A stretch of DNA of 11,560 nt, from the UHGV virus genome UHGV-0176440. One strand, given 5' to 3'. Below the pieces are notes generated by a model that saw only the letters and a program-made list of their open reading frames with translations, did not search any database and was not told where the DNA came from. Position 1 is the first letter of the stretch, and the number at the start of each line of letters is the position of its first letter. Position numbers and translations under genes: made by a program. This document shows positions 1 through 7,952 of the stretch, one piece after another. The stretch comes from a virus.

Positions 1-121
1 GCTTAACGACAACTTCTGCGCCATCCACTTTGCTTGCACCCTCAGCAACTGCGCGTGCCATCGTTTCAATATGTCCGTACATGGAATAATAAAGCACTAG
101 TATTCTTGCCTTAACACTCAT
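1..121 (-). CDS. wrbA: NAD(P)H:quinone oxidoreductase WrbA, N-terminal fragment (gene continues beyond window start)
   Basis: Reverse complement of 1-121 reads from ATG (119-121) as [40 protein letters not shown], the flavodoxin-like WrbA N-terminus ([33 protein letters not shown] as I recall it from E. coli WrbA). GC is clearly higher here than in the rest of the window. Confidence 0.85.
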
Positions 122-2757: not shown

Positions 2758-4926
2758 TCAATCATCTTCTGGGAATGATGAACTTAATAGCGTAGCTTCT
2801 GCATATTGGTCGTAGATATTACTGCTAAAGGTCATAAAGCTGGTTTCATCTGGTTTAATGGCAACTTCACCACCAAGTGAAACTTTCACAGGCTCCTGAA
2901 TACGCTTACTTAAAGCAGAGATTTCATCCCTCAGACCCTGAATATCTGCACTCGTTAATGATGCATCTTGTTTCATGGTAATTAATTCTGGATGATTGAA
3001 TCTTGCAATATTCATTGTGGCATTGTTAAACAATTCACCCATTGAACTAAAAATTCTACTCCATCCTTCGTTAATCACATTCGGTTTATTAGGGTCACCA
3101 GAATACACAGGATTAAAGTCACTACCCACACCTACCCCAGATGGATGCATATTAGCGTTTTTGACTACTTCCTGATTCATAAAATCCAGTGCTTTCTTCA
3201 ATGCATATAAACCAAGGGTGACACCTCTGATTTGTGGAATCATTGAAGCTAATGCTAACGCTGTTTCATAACCGTCATCAGCATAACCAATTGCAAGAGC
3301 ACTACCTACACCACCAGCTACACCTTTCAGTTTACCAGTAGCTACCTGACCAGCCACCTGATTAGCTCTTGTACCTAACGTTGTGATTGCTCTTGTCAGG
3401 TTCATAACCCCTGTAGTAGCACTGAATAGTGTCTTTGCAGATAACGCTATAGCAAGACCTTTGACGAAGTTGATAAAACCATCACCGACTTCATCAAGTA
3501 GTTTTCGTTTAGTGTCATCAAGGCTGTAATAGAACTTCTTAGTCTGTAAAATCCAGCCTTCAATGGTGTTATTGAATACGCGAATATCATCTACACCAGC
3601 TTTAAGCATGTCGATAAGTCCACCGATAGCATCACCAGCGATAGAAGAACTCATCCCCATTTCACTAAGCAGGTTACTCAGGCTGGATAAGAAGCCGTTT
3701 AACTCATCCTGTGAACCTGAGAAGATTTTCACCATCGTATCATCCCAGTTGTTAGCCAGTTTCCCTAAAGCTGTCTGAGTGCTCTTAGCGACTTCAGCCC
3801 AGCCACCCGCTTTATCAATCATCAAGCCCATCTGTTTAGCGACTTTAGGGAGAGTATCACTACTTAAAATCTTCCCGTTTTTCATGGCTGCATCAAGCTC
3901 TGTAGCAGTCATACCCAATGCTTCAGCGAATAGCTTAAATGCACCAGCCATACGGTCACCTAACTGCCCACGTAATTCTTCAGCCTGAATCTTGCCCTTA
4001 GAAGCCATCTGCTCAAATGCTTTCAAAATGCCGTTTAGCTCGTCGTTAGAAAGCCCCATTAAGCGACTCATAGCCGTTGCATTACCAAATAGTTCCTGTG
4101 TCTGTTCCTGTGACATAGAACCCTGAGCACCTGCTGCAAACTTAGCGTAGCTTGATAGCCCTTCAGAGATATTAAGACCTGTCTTGTCAGCCAGTCCCCT
4201 GATAAATGTTTCAGCTTCAGATGCTTTATCACCAAGTACAAACTTAGCGGCTCTCTGTGCGGAATCTCGTTTAAGACCTGCATTCATAATGGCCTTGTAA
4301 GCGTTAAGAGCACCCATCACAGAGTAAAATGCACCAGATAATTTAATTGCATTGCTTGCAAGATTATTAAATGCGTCGCTTGTATTATTAATGCTGGTGG
4401 TCTTTGTCTGTGACCTGAGTTTATTCAACGTTTCACGAAGAGATTGATTTAATTTTGCAAGTTCAGCGTTAAACTTTTCACTTCCAATATTACCAGCCTT
4501 GCCGCTTAAACTGTAATATTGTGCTTTAAACATTTTAGCCATCAGCGGATTAATATCACCAAGCTTAGACATATTCACACTATGCGCTGCTGTGATTGCT
4601 CTGTTGCCGCTAATTCGTGGCTGTCTCGGTTGTTTTGGAGGATTAACAGTGTCATTAAATCTGGTGGTAAACTGGAAAACTTTTGTGCTTCGTGCTCTAG
4701 CTTCCAGACGGTCAAAGGTCTTATTAATTTTTCCTTCCATTGACTTTAAAGAACTTGTCAGATTGCTGTCAAATTTCTTGGTATCGACCTTAAACGCCCT
4801 ATTCAAATTACGTTCAATTCTTTGTGCTGATTGCAAAGCTGCCTTTTCAACTCTTTGCAAGCCCTTAACAACGTTCTCGCTGAAGCCTAGCTCAACGATA
4901 AAACTATCAACTGTGAATTTGCTCAT
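2758..4926 (-). CDS. Phage tail tape-measure-like protein (722 aa)
   Basis: Long low-complexity helical protein rich in A/L/K/G/S. Central segment SNDELNGILKAFEQMASKGKIQAEELRGQLGDRMAGAFKLFAEALGMTATELDAAMKNGKILSSDTLPKVAKQMG resembles the conserved tape-measure domain; Gly-rich hydrophobic C-terminal stretch. SD GAGGTG upstream of ATG. Confidence 0.7.
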   Translation of the reverse strand: MSKFTVDSFIVELGFSENVVKGLQRVEKAALQSAQRIERNLNRAFKVDTKKFDSNLTSSLKSMEGKINKTFDRLEARARSTKVFQFTTRFNDTVNPPKQPRQPRISGNRAITAAHSVNMSKLGDINPLMAKMFKAQYYSLSGKAGNIGSEKFNAELAKLNQSLRETLNKLRSQTKTTSINNTSDAFNNLASNAIKLSGAFYSVMGALNAYKAIMNAGLKRDSAQRAAKFVLGDKASEAETFIRGLADKTGLNISEGLSSYAKFAAGAQGSMSQEQTQELFGNATAMSRLMGLSNDELNGILKAFEQMASKGKIQAEELRGQLGDRMAGAFKLFAEALGMTATELDAAMKNGKILSSDTLPKVAKQMGLMIDKAGGWAEVAKSTQTALGKLANNWDDTMVKIFSGSQDELNGFLSSLSNLLSEMGMSSSIAGDAIGGLIDMLKAGVDDIRVFNNTIEGWILQTKKFYYSLDDTKRKLLDEVGDGFINFVKGLAIALSAKTLFSATTGVMNLTRAITTLGTRANQVAGQVATGKLKGVAGGVGSALAIGYADDGYETALALASMIPQIRGVTLGLYALKKALDFMNQEVVKNANMHPSGVGVGSDFNPVYSGDPNKPNVINEGWSRIFSSMGELFNNATMNIARFNHPELITMKQDASLTSADIQGLRDEISALSKRIQEPVKVSLGGEVAIKPDETSFMTFSSNIYDQYAEATLLSSSFPEDD

Positions 4927-4999: not shown

Positions 5000-5046
5000 C
5001 GTGTTATAGATTCGATAGAACCTATCTCATACACCCAACCAATTCT

Positions 5047-5250
5047 TTATCTAATCAGATAATAATTACCATCTTCACCGACAATCTGACAATCACTTGG
5101 TAATTTATCAAGACACCATTTAGCGATTCTTCTGATTCTGTTATTTTGCTTAGAGGTGGATGATTTGATTCGTTTTGGTTTGTTGGGTTGTTCTTTCAAT
5201 CTCTCGCTAATTGCTTTAATAAGTTCATAGCGTTCCGTTAAATCAATCAT
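5047..5250 (-). CDS. Hypothetical small basic protein (67 aa)
   Basis: ORF with a very strong SD (AAAGGAGGTG, 6-nt spacer) before ATG; 25 nt downstream of the 236-aa gene stop. Confidence 0.6.
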   Translation of the reverse strand: MIDLTERYELIKAISERLKEQPNKPKRIKSSTSKQNNRIRRIAKWCLDKLPSDCQIVGEDGNYYLIR

Positions 5251-5275: not shown

Positions 5276-5986
5276 TCAAAGTGCCTTTGCATACTTCTGA
5301 GAAATCTTCGTAAGCTGCTCAATATCAGCCTGCATAGCAACCTTCTTCTGCGTTTCATATGCAGAAATAAGGTCTTTCATAGCCTGAAGCTCTCTTGAGA
5401 GATACAACTTAGCACTATCAAGCTGCTTGTTACGTGATGCCAAGATGTTCTGTCTAGCAAGTTCACAGAGTTCTTCATCGCTCTTATCGGTCATGTAAAT
5501 AAACTGACCAGCACCTCTTGAAGCTTTAACCATCTTCACAATTCGATATCCATCAGGAAGACTACTAATCGCGGCTGGGATGTTTTCTGGATAAATACCA
5601 AAACCGTCATTGTCTTCGTATTGGTAATAGACAAATGGTTTCTGTGACAATTCATCCTGAATCTCAAATTCTGACGGCTCAATAGCTGATTGCATCAAGG
5701 TAACTTTGCTGTAAGCGTCATCTAATCTAAGGCGCTGTTCTTTTAACTGTGGGTAATATTCACGCTCAAGATTAAATAGTGCTTCAGTTTTGCATACATC
5801 AGGCATCTCTTGAGATTCAGGAGCCACAAAGGTAACTTGCTTTGGTGACATCTTTAGCGATTGCTCAAGCTCAATACGCTTGTCATGCTCTTGACGCTGG
5901 ATAGTGATAGCTGGATGCTCAGTCTGTGGTGACCAGTCGCCAAAACTATCAATCTTTTTACCGTTAATATATAAATCGTTTGTCAT
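5276..5986 (-). CDS. Hypothetical protein (236 aa) with helical/coiled-coil C-terminus
   Basis: ORF with SD AGAGGAAA upstream of ATG; no recognisable catalytic motif. Confidence 0.65.
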   Translation of the reverse strand: MTNDLYINGKKIDSFGDWSPQTEHPAITIQRQEHDKRIELEQSLKMSPKQVTFVAPESQEMPDVCKTEALFNLEREYYPQLKEQRLRLDDAYSKVTLMQSAIEPSEFEIQDELSQKPFVYYQYEDNDGFGIYPENIPAAISSLPDGYRIVKMVKASRGAGQFIYMTDKSDEELCELARQNILASRNKQLDSAKLYLSRELQAMKDLISAYETQKKVAMQADIEQLTKISQKYAKAL

Positions 5987-6014
5987 TGTTTCATTTCCTC
6001 TAAGTGTGTGGTTA

Positions 6015-6092
6015 TTTCTTAATAGAGCACCTTCAACGCCAATACACTTAGAAGATGACTTAACGATTTATTAAAGATGCTCTATTAAGAAA
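6015..6092. repeat. Perfect 15-bp inverted repeat (TTTCTTAATAGAGCA / TGCTCTATTAAGAAA) separated by 48 bp
   Basis: Arms at 6015-6029 and 6078-6092 are exact reverse complements; located in the upstream region of the 236-aa gene. Confidence 0.8.
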
Positions 6093-6102
6093 AGCCCTAA
6101 AC

Positions 6103-6146
6103 ATAGGTGATTCGGATATTCATGGAATCATCCTCATCTGTGAAGG
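6103..6146 (+). repeat. Copy A of a roughly 40-nt dispersed repeat with an internal hairpin (TGATTC-11nt-GAATCA)
   Basis: ATAGGTGATTCGGATATTCATGGAATCATCCTCATCTGTG matches 11465-11508 (ATAGTTGATTCGGATGTTCTAGGAATCATCCTCATACGTG) at about 36 of 41 positions, same orientation. Confidence 0.8.
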
Positions 6147-6220
6147 GCTTTGAAGGTTTGCTTTAACGTTAACGAAGTTTCAGGAAAAACTTTCTTTAAA
6201 AGCTCTGTTTAAAAACTCTT

Positions 6221-6250
6221 AAAGAAAACGCCCTAATCATGAGTTAGGGC
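6221..6250 (-). terminator. Rho-independent terminator (minus strand) downstream of the 107-aa/micro-ORF unit
   Basis: Minus-strand RNA GCCCUAA-cucauga-UUAGGGC followed by GUUUUCUUU (plus-strand stem 6230-6236 / 6244-6250, A-rich 6221-6229). A weaker hairpin plus U-tract lies at about 6393-6412. Confidence 0.55.
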
Positions 6251-6474
6251 AAAGCTGTAAGGGTTCAATAATGAATGATTAAGCACTTTTTGATATATAG
6301 CCTATCTAGTGGGCTAAATAGGCCATGTAGCGAAAAGCATTGCACCTTTCAGAATAACTATCCCTAGATGTAGATGGAATTGTTGAAAGAAATAAGAGAG
6401 AATTGCTCTCCCATACTTAAAATTATGGCATATTTAAGGTTATTTGTCAACAGCTTTTTAACAGATTGGTAACA

Positions 6475-6552
6475 TTAATTCTTATTTACCGTGTTACCTA
6501 CCCAGCAACCAACAAATAAACCCAAAGCTGTCCAAGCAATTATTAAGCCCAT
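6475..6552 (-). CDS. Unannotated micro-ORF, 25-aa hydrophobic peptide (MGLIIAWTALGLFVGCWVGNTVNKN)
   Basis: ATG overlaps the stop of the upstream 107-aa ORF in a TAATG arrangement (translational coupling). Single predicted transmembrane-like helix. Not in the ORF track because of length. Confidence 0.35.
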   Translation of the reverse strand: MGLIIAWTALGLFVGCWVGNTVNKN

Positions 6553-6875
6553 TAATGCACCACCTTCGAATCCGTCACCAAAATATTGTCAGCGTACAAA
6601 ATTGCTATAGCTGCCTTGAGATATCTTTCAGGGCTAACGCTGTATCGGTTCGTTTGCTCGATAACCAATCTTTTCATGTTGCTGTCTTTAATTGGTAGCA
6701 TCATTCGAGGCTCGTTAAACTCCACCGACTGAATAAAATCTTCAATTGCTTCTGAGTTTTCAGCCATGAGCTTTAGCAGCTTGTCAAAGTCAATGCTAAC
6801 ACCTACATCAGTGAAAGCCTGAATCATCATAGCGGTGTCGCTATCAACGAAAATTTGCATTGGGTGATTATTCAT
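6552..6875 (-). CDS. Hypothetical acidic protein (107 aa)
   Basis: ORF with SD AGAGGAAT 8 nt upstream of ATG; no recognisable motif. Confidence 0.6.
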   Translation of the reverse strand: MNNHPMQIFVDSDTAMMIQAFTDVGVSIDFDKLLKLMAENSEAIEDFIQSVEFNEPRMMLPIKDSNMKRLVIEQTNRYSVSPERYLKAAIAILYADNILVTDSKVVH

Positions 6876-7012
6876 TTTTAAATTCCTCTAAAACACATCT
6901 TAAATCTGCCAAAATAGCCATTCTGAGGCCAGTAACCATGCGGGTTACAGAGGGAGTGAGACACCTTAGTAATAGGGTAGCTCATCTTTGAGTCTCACTC
7001 ATTCTCACAGGC

Positions 7013-7399
7013 TTACACAGACGCTTTAATCTTGTAGTATTGACTGCGTGATAAGCCGTATTTCTCAGAAATATAACTTTGTGATTGTCCTTTGGTGATT
7101 GCATCAATGATTAAATCTTTATTGTATCTGTTGCCATTGGTTTTGTGCTTGTCACCACTTTTAATAGAGTTGAAATTCTCAATTAATTTAATGGCGTCTT
7201 TAAGGTCGTCTTCGTAAGCATAATCAAAACCCCTGATAAACTCGAAATCACCATTATCTTTTTGTGCTTCAGTCCAGATATCAAATCTTGAGGCTAATTG
7301 CTGGTGGGTAAACTTGGGTTTATTGGTTTCTGTTATGTCTTTCCAGACTCTACCGTCAAATCTTACCAAATGGTCACGATGTTTATAAAAGTCATACAT
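7013..7399 (-). CDS. Putative DNA-binding protein with C-terminal helix-turn-helix (128 aa)
   Basis: ORF-track ORF 7013-7432 starts at TTG; the internal ATG at 7397-7399 has AGGAGG just upstream and overlaps the HNH gene stop (TAATG). C-terminal segment NRYNKDLIIDAITKGQSQSYISEKYGLSRSQYYKIK looks like a resolvase/terminase-small-subunit-type HTH. Confidence 0.6.
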   Translation of the reverse strand: MYDFYKHRDHLVRFDGRVWKDITETNKPKFTHQQLASRFDIWTEAQKDNGDFEFIRGFDYAYEDDLKDAIKLIENFNSIKSGDKHKTNGNRYNKDLIIDAITKGQSQSYISEKYGLSRSQYYKIKASV

Positions 7400-7671
7400 T
7401 AAACCTCCTGTAGTAAATTGTTTGGGTGGCAATTTCTTTTATTACCATCCCTGAAGATAATTTTTTTAGTTGCCTGAACTTCATGATGCAAAAACCAGAT
7501 GACATATTTCACATAATAATCACGAGTGCCATAACGAATCATTGGATTACCGTAAGCGTCATCTCTTGTCTTAACCTCTCCACCATCAATCCATTCAAGC
7601 ATTCCTGTTTCGTAATTAATCATGAAGTAAGTTGCAAAGAACCGTTTAATATCATCTCGCCATTGCTTCAT
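7399..7671 (-). CDS. HNH endonuclease (90 aa)
   Basis: Motif VIWFLHHEVQATKKIIFRDGNKRNCHPNNLLQ (paired His, then DGNK..N..NL) typical of small phage-associated HNH nucleases. SD AAGAGG upstream of ATG. Confidence 0.7.
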   Translation of the reverse strand: MKQWRDDIKRFFATYFMINYETGMLEWIDGGEVKTRDDAYGNPMIRYGTRDYYVKYVIWFLHHEVQATKKIIFRDGNKRNCHPNNLLQEV

Positions 7672-7673
7672 AA

Positions 7674-7952
7674 TCAGACCTCTTGAGATAACTTGTGAAT
7701 CTTGATGCTCAATAGTCGGGCAATATCAATTTTAAAGCTGTTAAGTGCCTTCAAAGTATCTAAAGCGTCCGTAGTAATTCGGATGTGCTTACGACCTTTA
7801 GAGACTGGATATTTAAGTAAATCCGACTCAGTGACTTCTTTAGCAATTGCAAGCTGCATAACAGTCTGATGAGGCAAGTTAGTTGCTCGTTTAATTCTGT
7901 TAAGCTCGTTAAAAGCTTCCTCTGAAATACGGGTTAATGTGTGTTTATTCAT
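7674..7952 (-). CDS. Putative ribbon-helix-helix DNA-binding protein, possibly tandem RHH (92 aa)
   Basis: Two beta-strand-then-two-helix patterns (HTLTRISEEAFNELNRIKRATNLPHQTVMQLAIAK and KHIRITTDALDTLKALNSFKIDIARLL). ATG directly follows the TAA of the upstream gene; SD AGAGGAA. Confidence 0.55.
   Translation of the reverse strand: MNKHTLTRISEEAFNELNRIKRATNLPHQTVMQLAIAKEVTESDLLKYPVSKGRKHIRITTDALDTLKALNSFKIDIARLLSIKIHKLSQEV

Follow-up and report, generated by a model that had tools for sequence, protein, structure and literature searches.

A non-coding region in an island inserted in wrbA

The DNA considered here is an 11,560-nt stretch of the virus genome UHGV-0176440 (hereafter the window), which comparison with the closest Escherichia coli genomes identifies as one complete island of ~11.4 kb inserted into the E. 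coli gene wrbA. Our subject is a non-coding gap of the island lying upstream of the leftward gene for a 236-aa protein, and in particular two structures within it: a long inverted repeat, and a repeat of ~40 nt that is found again close to the right end of the island. We conclude, with a probability of about 0.7, that the ~40-nt repeat represents an insertion element, a miniature hairpin that we refer to as a mini-hairpin, and that the inverted repeat is a separate and unrelated hairpin in a leader RNA.

A preliminary description of the window, made from its sequence, gave the gap as 565 bp of non-coding DNA, and its extent is indeed 5987-6551. The recurrence of the ~40-nt repeat reported there is also real, with 35 of 41 positions (85%) identical between 6102-6142 and 11453-11493, but the second copy had been placed at 11465-11508, ~12 nt too far to the right. 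The sequences TGATTC and GAATCA, described as the stem of the repeat, are present in both copies but are not the stem of the wider family; TGATTC is a conserved tag, and the covarying stem starts directly after it. A 30-nt core pattern of the repeat has exactly two matches in the window and none in 200 shuffles, and a shorter third copy, overlooked at first, lies further to the left (Table 1). Copy 1 is housed in the loop of an outer hairpin formed by 6091-6098 and 6144-6151, and all three copies are antisense to the adjoining genes.

A family of mini-hairpins with covarying stems

In a scan for GATTC with an adjacent hairpin and TCAT, covering 246 kb in 33 phage loci and 439 kb in 44 island loci, the mini-hairpin turns out to be one of a family. 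Its distinct members number at least 17, with different stem sequences, all of which are complementary. The common architecture is (T)AG, NT, GATTC, a variable stem of 4-9 bp, a loop of 3-4 nt and TCAT, often followed by AG, in a unit of 24-34 nt. A lower stem of TGA/TCA is conserved, with TTC forming a 5' bulge, such that sequence conservation is confined to the base of the hairpin and the upper stem is maintained as pairing only. Among the stems are GATAG/CTATC, GGTAG/CTACC, GGATG/CATCC, GGATAA/TTATCC, GATTAG/CTAATC, AGGTAA/TTACCT, GGTTTAT/ATAAACC, GGAT(A/G)TTC/GAAT(C)ATCC and GGTTGTTC/GAAT(C)AACC. The long members carry GTTC/GAAT; GAATCA is absent from short ones such as GATAG-AAC-CTATC and GATAG-AAGA-CTATC. 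No promoter motif or T-run is present within the mini-hairpin, a terminator scan does not call it, its 3' neighbour being TCAT(AG) rather than a T/U run, and a search of the window with the Rfam 15 covariance models gave no match at E <=1.

Sets chosen as hairpins will be paired in part by construction, and we therefore also ascertained candidates by their flanks only, collecting the sequences between GATTC and TCAT at spacings of 9-26 nt. Among 92 distinct middles obtained in this way, 17 have at least four outer Watson-Crick pairs, compared with 0.49 expected, and lengthening the flanks leaves almost only hairpins among the independent instances. When 20 members are aligned, changes on both sides are seen at all four outer pairs of the upper stem, with 24 double changes in all; the covariation score was matched in none of 500 shuffles, and sliding the pairing partner reduces upper-stem pairing from 95% to 33-57%. 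Variants with GGTAG/CTATC, which contain a G·T pair on the GATTC strand, bridge the GATAG/CTATC and GGTAG/CTACC members, and from these G·T pairs and G·T intermediates we infer that the GATTC strand folds alone. The further copies and compensatory changes that the preliminary description expected of a functional hairpin are thus both found.

Other readings of the element were considered and dropped: a mini-ORF (ORF, open reading frame) or ribosome-binding site on the reverse strand (ATGAGG...) is unconserved between copies; the resemblance to a tRNA T-arm is superficial, and the phage region contains no tRNA; and a significance of GANTC as a HinfI/CcrM site fails as several members have no second GANTC site.

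The family is previously undescribed, and we found no relevant account of phage mini-hairpins of this kind in the literature searched. Its range is the Felix-O1-like (Ounavirinae) phages and one family of phage-derived E. coli islands. By blast against 50,697 phage records the short form is restricted to the Ounavirinae, bar weak chance matches, and the element itself matches only three Ounavirinae phages, within a gene-free region of 1.6 kb; the 18 phage copies are all located between -630 and +1030 nt relative to the boundary of the terminal repeat. The long form is present in 168 of 5426 E. coli genomes and is chromosomal and unannotated in every case. Copies occupy one to four places per E. 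coli genome and number one to three per phage. A strict pattern search of 185,579 species genomes (GTDB representatives) returned 12 matches, none with the hairpin and hence due to chance, and the matches from looser pattern scans of viral contigs, mostly chance or coding, were removed by the hairpin test.

Insertion and loss at many sites

Across the family, this structured and strand-asymmetric mini-hairpin has been gained and lost at many non-coding sites. Searching the flanks of each copy across all loci provided ten site comparisons, in which the filled allele is 22 to 34 nt longer than the shorter one (Table 1) and several junctions are clean, as in TCATAG|CCACGC, where the bar marks the junction. 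The usual product is ...(T)AG-NT-GATTC-hairpin-TCAT-AG..., and the junction repeats are 0-6 nt long (AG, TGA, ATG, TCATAG, or none) and resemble the ends of the element itself. Many junctions are preceded by (T/C)(A)TAG, and others have TGA, ATG or AG repeats or none. The islands have at least 12 sites, with 29 copies in the plus and 15 in the minus orientation, and the phages at least eight sites at which a copy is present or absent. Every copy is in non-coding DNA, often in the loop of a hairpin or terminator, and every compared site is dispensable, having filled and empty or decayed alleles. Identical elements can also be found at different sites within the islands: GGATAAGAATTATCC occurs on opposite strands at a distance of ~6 kb, and GGTAGAATCTACC is found in either orientation at several positions.

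The three sites in the window illustrate this variability. The site of copy 1 is filled in the window, in the related islands L005, L009 and L230, and in a few metagenome islands, and has alleles of 27, 26, 17, 15 or 14 nt in other islands, compared with 45 nt when filled; the 26- and 27-nt alleles are clearly deletion derivatives, so that loss by deletion occurs too. Among four aligned island leaders, the element at this internal site is present only in the window. At the right end, copy 2 stops 17 nt short of the attR core; here the element is missing from L001, where a deletion derivative is found, and present in the other aligned islands, and a clean empty allele, TCATAGTGTATT, is found in islands inserted in yecE. 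The site of copy 3 has hairpin-less alleles of 14-16 nt in other islands. L001 and L003 carry additional copies at other places, one of them inverted, and across the islands three separate insertion sites are used in the leader that precedes the 236-aa gene. In L001 a mini-hairpin with a degenerate tag, ACTTC-GGATAG-AAGA-CTATCC-TCA, follows immediately after the hairpin at 6392-6414. Given insertion and loss at so many sites, the three copies in the window are paralogous passengers rather than a shared regulatory site.

The same pattern is seen in the phages. Among four aligned versions of the gene-free region, Sf18 and EcSzw_1 have the element whereas UAB_69 and EF202P1 do not, and shorter relatives form indels elsewhere in the region, two of them in terminator loops and one nested within another member.

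Several further arrangements of mini-hairpins were observed. In 5 of 31 Ounavirinae loci (L161, L164 and related ones) the direct terminal repeat has a GGTAG/CTACC mini-hairpin 38 nt upstream of its left boundary, with the junction ...CTGCTT|GGTAGCCC (reference UAB_69, OL656108, 14626-15243); GGTAG is common to the stem of this mini-hairpin and the boundary sequence, and some islands have the same element at the orthologous position. In L003, two inverted long-type mini-hairpins, at 14346-14386 (minus) and 14725-14765 (plus), flank ~340 bp near the right end of this yecE-type island, where an AP2/ERF-type gene replaces the small recombinase. A motif, CTACGTGA(A)A, is found at 2678-2756 and 9617-9647 of the window and near ~17040 of L001. 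Islands and phages carry both inverted and direct copies of it (TTTCACGTAG), and it serves repeatedly, in two different places, as a target of the GGATAA/TTATCC mini-hairpin.

The inverted repeat and the leader of the 236-aa gene

The 15-bp arms of the inverted repeat reported earlier (TTTCTTAATAGAGCA, 6015-6029, and TGCTCTATTAAGAAA, 6078-6092) are exact reverse complements, as described, and are the core of a longer repeat (Table 1). The -10-like TATTAA noted with them is present in the right arm on the plus strand, but the promoter scan places no sigma-70-type promoter there, and the gene is on the minus strand. The hairpin of ~22 bp ends 28 nt before the ATG at 5986, and both imperfections of the stem are U·G pairs on the minus, mRNA-sense strand; it forms part of the minimum-energy fold of that strand and is absent from that of the plus strand. 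The proposal of a structured control region stands: the minus-strand RNA from 5975-6160 folds with z = -6.4, and its fold has two parts, a AAAGCCCU/AGGGCUUU hairpin with a U-run and copy 1 in its loop, followed by the inverted-repeat hairpin.

All 42 of the related islands compared have an exact copy of the left arm. These were retrieved with a 26-nt probe that includes most of the right arm, so that only the left arm is an independent observation. We compared two subtypes of the inverted repeat by single-sequence folds: in the subtype-2 islands (L230, L231) the arms have other sequences (CAGCUUUUAAAAAGCA and UGCUUUUUAAAAACUG), a hairpin of ~26 bp is still formed, and the loop motif UCUUCUAAGU is conserved. 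As the imperfections are only G·U pairs on the mRNA-sense strand, and the hairpin is kept in the second subtype with another sequence, our preferred reading of the inverted repeat is a hairpin formed in RNA, within the 5' leader of the 236-aa gene mRNA, with a putative role in processing, stability or control of read-through.

A sigma-70-like sequence at 6450-6422, both of whose hexamers are conserved in island alignment A1, is likely to be the start of this leader, which would be ~430 nt long. From there the transcript would pass three terminator-like hairpins before reaching the inverted-repeat hairpin, and expression of the block of tail genes would depend on read-through or processing of the leader. 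The stem of the outer hairpin around copy 1 is invariant in island alignments A1 and A4.

Two further observations concern this region. At 6231-6251, the loop of GCCCTAA-TCATGAG-TTAGGGC is the exact reverse complement of the CTCATGA of its relatives, a hairpin flip in which the loop is inverted. The outer hairpin and mini-element (~6090-6137; L230, L231) are exactly where the two subtypes of the module made up of the leader and the 236-aa gene recombine; the subtype blast pieces begin at query positions 104 or 150, with the right side ~100% identical and the left side diverged.

Table 1. Features of the window, and shorter alleles of mini-hairpin sites with the increase in length of the filled allele. 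The vertical bar marks the junction; positions are those of the window.
Feature	Position	Strand	Remarks
Mini-hairpin copy 1	6105-6137	+	AG-GT-GATTC (6109-6113), upper stem GGATATTC (6114-6121), loop ATG
Mini-hairpin copy 1, 3' half	6125-6137	+	GAAT-(C bulge)-ATCC (6125-6133), then TCAT (6134-6137)
Mini-hairpin copy 2	11456-11488	+	AG-TT-GATTC (11460-11464), GGATGTTC / GAAT(C)ATCC, one G·T pair, loop TAG, TCAT (11485-11488)
Mini-hairpin copy 3	5005-5030	+	TATA-GATTC-GATAG-AAC-CTATC-TCAT; between the 67-aa and tape-measure genes
Long inverted repeat	arms 6015-6036 / 6071-6092	-	22 nt, 91% complementary; exact core 6015-6029 / 6078-6092
Terminator-like outer hairpin	6091-6151	-	AAAGCCCT (6091-6098) pairs with AGGGCTTT (6144-6151), then UUUUCUU
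Tandem 13-nt units, three to four	6172-6229		CTTTCTTTAAAAG-like; one unit fewer in L001
Terminator-like hairpin	6229-6251	-	GCCCTAA...TTAGGGC and T-run; loop reverse-complemented relative to other islands
Terminator-like hairpin	6392-6414	-	directly downstream of the 6422-6450 promoter
Sigma-70-like promoter	6422-6450	-	TTGACA, 17-nt spacer, CATAAT, upstream TG; 11/12 matches; consensus match only
attL core AAAGCAC	91-97		shared junction sequence
attR core AAAGCAC	11506-11512		native wrbA restarts here
547-aa large serine recombinase (integrase)	173-1816	+
Dit-like baseplate protein	1813-2622	-
Tape-measure protein	2758-4926	-
67-aa ORF	5047-5250	-
236-aa ORF	5276-5986	-
Small ORFs, including an HNH protein	6552-8510	-
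Felixounavirus UAB_69 direct terminal repeat, homology to its left boundary region	10211-10373	+	120/173 identical
191-aa small serine recombinase	10555-11130	+
Shorter allele TCATAG|CCACGC			+30 nt
Shorter allele TCATAG|TGTATT			+33 nt; right-end site of the island family of the window
Shorter allele TTATAG|TTACCT			+33 or +34 nt
Shorter allele AACAAGCCC			+27 nt
Shorter allele GTCTAG|GATG			+24 nt; phages, 38 nt before the terminal-repeat boundary; 5/31 loci
Shorter allele TTGCAG|ATATTT			+26 nt
Shorter allele TGGTAACAATAC			+26 nt
Shorter allele ATATAG|ATGTTTG			+26 nt
Shorter allele TTTCTCATAGGGGC			+22 nt
Shorter allele GATAG|AATCTATC			+28 nt; nested within another member

Organization and relationships of the island

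The island extends from ~98 to ~11505, and the final 55 bases of the window are 100% identical to E. coli wrbA. Island DNA restores the 5' end and start codon of wrbA: the gene regains an intact ORF on integration (window 1-121 / 11506-11560), with a new N-terminus replacing MAKVLVLYYS..., and with its start codon and upstream region coming from the island; RefSeq annotates a full-length wrbA there. The control region is present in 346 of 5426 complete E. coli genomes (~6%), and no match to it was found among plasmids by megablast or, by distant blast, among phages, with which sharing is limited to the mini-hairpin and the segment at 10211-10373. Related islands with a different integrase are inserted in yecE.

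In addition to the genes listed in Table 1, there are small DNA-binding-like proteins encoded in the island. None of its genes was recognised as a capsid, terminase or replication gene, and its tail genes are in part ~91% identical to Felixounavirus DNA. The sharing of the mini-hairpin with Ounavirinae only, together with the phage-like tail genes and the mimic of a terminal-repeat boundary, suggests that the island is possibly a satellite of virulent Felix-O1-like phages. The literature searched yielded no description of an Ounavirinae satellite or of a wrbA serine-recombinase island.

The 236-aa protein is an acidic orphan whose gene, upstream of the 67-aa and tape-measure genes, occupies the position of a tail chaperone. 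It has no match in Pfam, NCBIfam or PHROGs and no homologue in phages by tblastn; one marginal PDB match, which covers 39 residues at E = 4e-6 and is to a chain labelled simply RPB_PLP3_R6, and a weak PADLOC match (PDC-S47, E = 0.0027) were obtained. Its RefSeq label of 'transposase' is unsupported by library or structure searches.

The right part of the island is variable, and the cargo from ~8.5 kb to the right end differs among islands, including methyltransferase, recombinase and AP2/ERF genes. Between 8510 and 10555 is a 2-kb gene-free stretch rich in short phage-style motifs (CTCTTAAC, CTGTAAC). It contains two 48-nt direct repeats, 92% identical and 95 nt apart (9105-9152 and 9200-9247), with the common motif TAT(T/A)TTTCAATAAGTT, a third copy of which lies near the right end (11311-11326). 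The repeats at 9105-9247 could be iterons or an origin.

Alternative explanations and a proposed mechanism

The preliminary description offered as one possibility that the ~40-nt repeat is an operator for a dimeric helix-turn-helix or ribbon-helix-helix protein of the island, common to two distant loci. The dyad TGATTC-N11-GAATCA is found in both of the longer window copies and the island does encode small DNA-binding-like proteins, but the constants of the family as a whole are the tag and the pairing, with no sequence dyad; the stems differ freely, and close relatives have empty or decayed alleles at both of these window sites. The same elements moreover occur in lytic phages without the island genes, and in both orientations at many unrelated non-coding sites with no fixed position relative to a promoter. 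Free stem variation, both orientations and presence or absence at each site contradict a dimeric-protein operator at the two loci, which we consider scarcely credible. A role in recombination or packaging, either as a res/hix-like crossover site for the 191-aa recombinase or as part of attP or a terminase signal, draws on the two direct copies that bracket 5.3 kb containing the recombinase gene, on the closeness of copy 2 to the att core, and on the phage site next to the terminal-repeat boundary. It appears very improbable, as L003 has four copies and no small recombinase, yecE islands with another integrase have the same right-end copy and one of them a clean empty site, most Felixounaviruses are without the boundary-proximal copy, and variable stems are unfit as half-sites for a sequence-specific recombinase. 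Quite unlikely, but deserving more weight, is a mobile cis-regulatory cassette that acts as RNA (as a terminator extension, stabiliser or processing site) and that, being useful, would spread through recombination, homologous or microhomologous, when phages and islands share an infected cell, much as has been proposed for the PeSL cassettes of T4-type phages. Several copies are in terminator loops or just downstream of genes, the GATTC strand is transcribed at the ends of the phage gene-free region, the breakpoints between island subtypes coincide with the hairpin site, and the junction repeats are like the ends of the element; against this are the presence of both orientations relative to the same operon in the islands, the antisense orientation of all three window copies, the lack of a promoter motif or T-run in the element, and the absence of any indispensable site. 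The inverted repeat, for its part, could be a DNA operator whose two half-sites are inverted and separated by 63 bp, or else a cruciform, to which a regulator of the island would bind. Its perfect conservation upstream of a gene would fit such a role, as would the fact that both arms change together between subtypes in the manner of immunity-type operators, yet the imperfections are all G·U on the mRNA-sense strand in both subtypes and A·C on the other, only the minus-strand minimum-energy fold includes the hairpin, and the spacing of 34-48 nt is unusual for a dimer operator, so that we judge this explanation unlikely and weaker than the RNA reading.

Several points weigh against our interpretation of the mini-hairpin as an insertion element and the inverted repeat as a leader hairpin. 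Insertion cannot be proven over precise deletion at any single site, and the internal site is a deletion series. The heterogeneity of the junctions means that there is no single target rule, the copy number is low (1-4 per genome), and no enzyme was identified, the island ORFs, small ones included, having no Y1/HUH match or HxH motif. The members used for counting pairs had been chosen as hairpins, so that their 100% pairing is partly built in; the flank-only tests address this, and the diversity of pair types in the 20-member alignment is not built in by such selection. The covariation of the inverted repeat comes from just two sequence types, and an operator co-evolving with its protein would also give paired changes, which leaves the strand-specific G·U pairs as the main discriminator. 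As a footprint of mobile DNA, the ~40-nt repeat is unfit for inferring co-regulation of the two loci at which it was first noticed.

We propose that the insertion element would act as a single-stranded hairpin on the GATTC strand, and that it would be recognised on single-stranded DNA at the base of the hairpin, by its tag, bulge and lower stem. Copying might proceed through a structure-specific single-strand nuclease or transposase in phage-infected cells, akin to the REP/RAYT or IS200/IS605 systems discussed below, or through microhomology-guided copy-choice during phage replication. Slippage between short flanking repeats across a hairpin, an established process, would explain precise loss, and loss of the mini-hairpin would be hairpin-stimulated slippage between its short flanking repeats. 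A bolder version, which we put forward only tentatively, is that the mini-hairpin is an actively transposing single-stranded DNA element, mobilised by an unrecognised structure-specific nuclease or transposase of the phage or infected host and shuttling between phage and satellite-like island. If so, at 24-34 nt it would be among the smallest mobile DNAs known, as well as a natural marker and driver of DNA exchange between phage and satellite.

Comparison with known systems

The preliminary description had allowed for the repeat being part of a known insertion sequence (IS) or of the terminus of a MITE (a miniature transposable element with inverted repeats), and it does behave as a miniature insertion element, but not as any known one. 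MITEs are likewise small non-autonomous insertions with inverted-repeat structure and short junction repeats, but the mini-hairpin is several-fold smaller, its would-be terminal inverted repeats are unconserved in sequence, and it has neither a visible parent IS nor a target-site duplication of fixed length. The ends of IS200/IS605 elements and of their miniature derivatives, the palindrome-associated transposable elements (PATEs), resemble it in having subterminal imperfect hairpins with bulged bases that are recognised on one strand and in preferring single-stranded DNA, and perhaps also in inserting next to a short defined sequence, 3' of a fixed tetra- or pentanucleotide in the case of IS200/IS605, with target duplication slight or absent. 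IS200/IS605 elements, however, need two different hairpin ends (the left end LE and right end RE; >=90 nt) together with TnpA, whereas the mini-hairpin is one hairpin with a loose target rule (often T|AG or TCATAG), and no TnpA was detected in the island.

Among phages, the PeSL 'mobile regulatory cassettes' of T4-type phages reportedly are short stem-loop units that are scattered through lytic-phage non-coding DNA, present or absent at given places and found at module boundaries, much like the mini-hairpin; they are said to carry an early promoter and to be larger, whereas the mini-hairpin has no promoter motif and a variable stem. Unlike an intrinsic terminator the mini-hairpin has no T/U run, although the outer hairpin around copy 1 does have a U-run.

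The known kind nearest to the mini-hairpin is the REP sequences (repetitive, palindromic and extragenic), palindromic repeats tagged with GTAG or CGTC (PMC3733652) and associated with REP-associated tyrosine transposases in REP/RAYT systems (PMC3333891, PMC3479197). Like the mini-hairpin, REPs are 20-40-nt extragenic imperfect palindromes with a conserved short tag at the foot of the hairpin and subfamily-specific stems, are sited downstream of genes and between convergent genes, and are thought to move and act as single-stranded hairpins. The tag of the mini-hairpin, in contrast, is (T)GATTC with its TTC bulge and a 3' TCAT(AG), and the ATAG or CTAG that precedes it merely resembles GTAG; it resides in a lytic phage subfamily and in chromosomal islands rather than in bacterial chromosomes at large; it has one to four copies per genome, compared with hundreds for REPs; no RAYT was found for it among the island ORFs; and it shows filled and empty alleles of single units as well as nested insertion. 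Because of its different tag, host and copy number, and with no RAYT found in the island, we do not file it as a REP. A very small and apparently mobile hairpin common to virulent phages and a satellite-like island is unusual, and if truly mobile it would be an unusually simple system, with one hairpin, a 5-nt tag and clean empty sites, in a lytic-phage setting in which the responsible enzyme could be sought by genetics. It would then be a good place to ask how REP-like palindromes spread.

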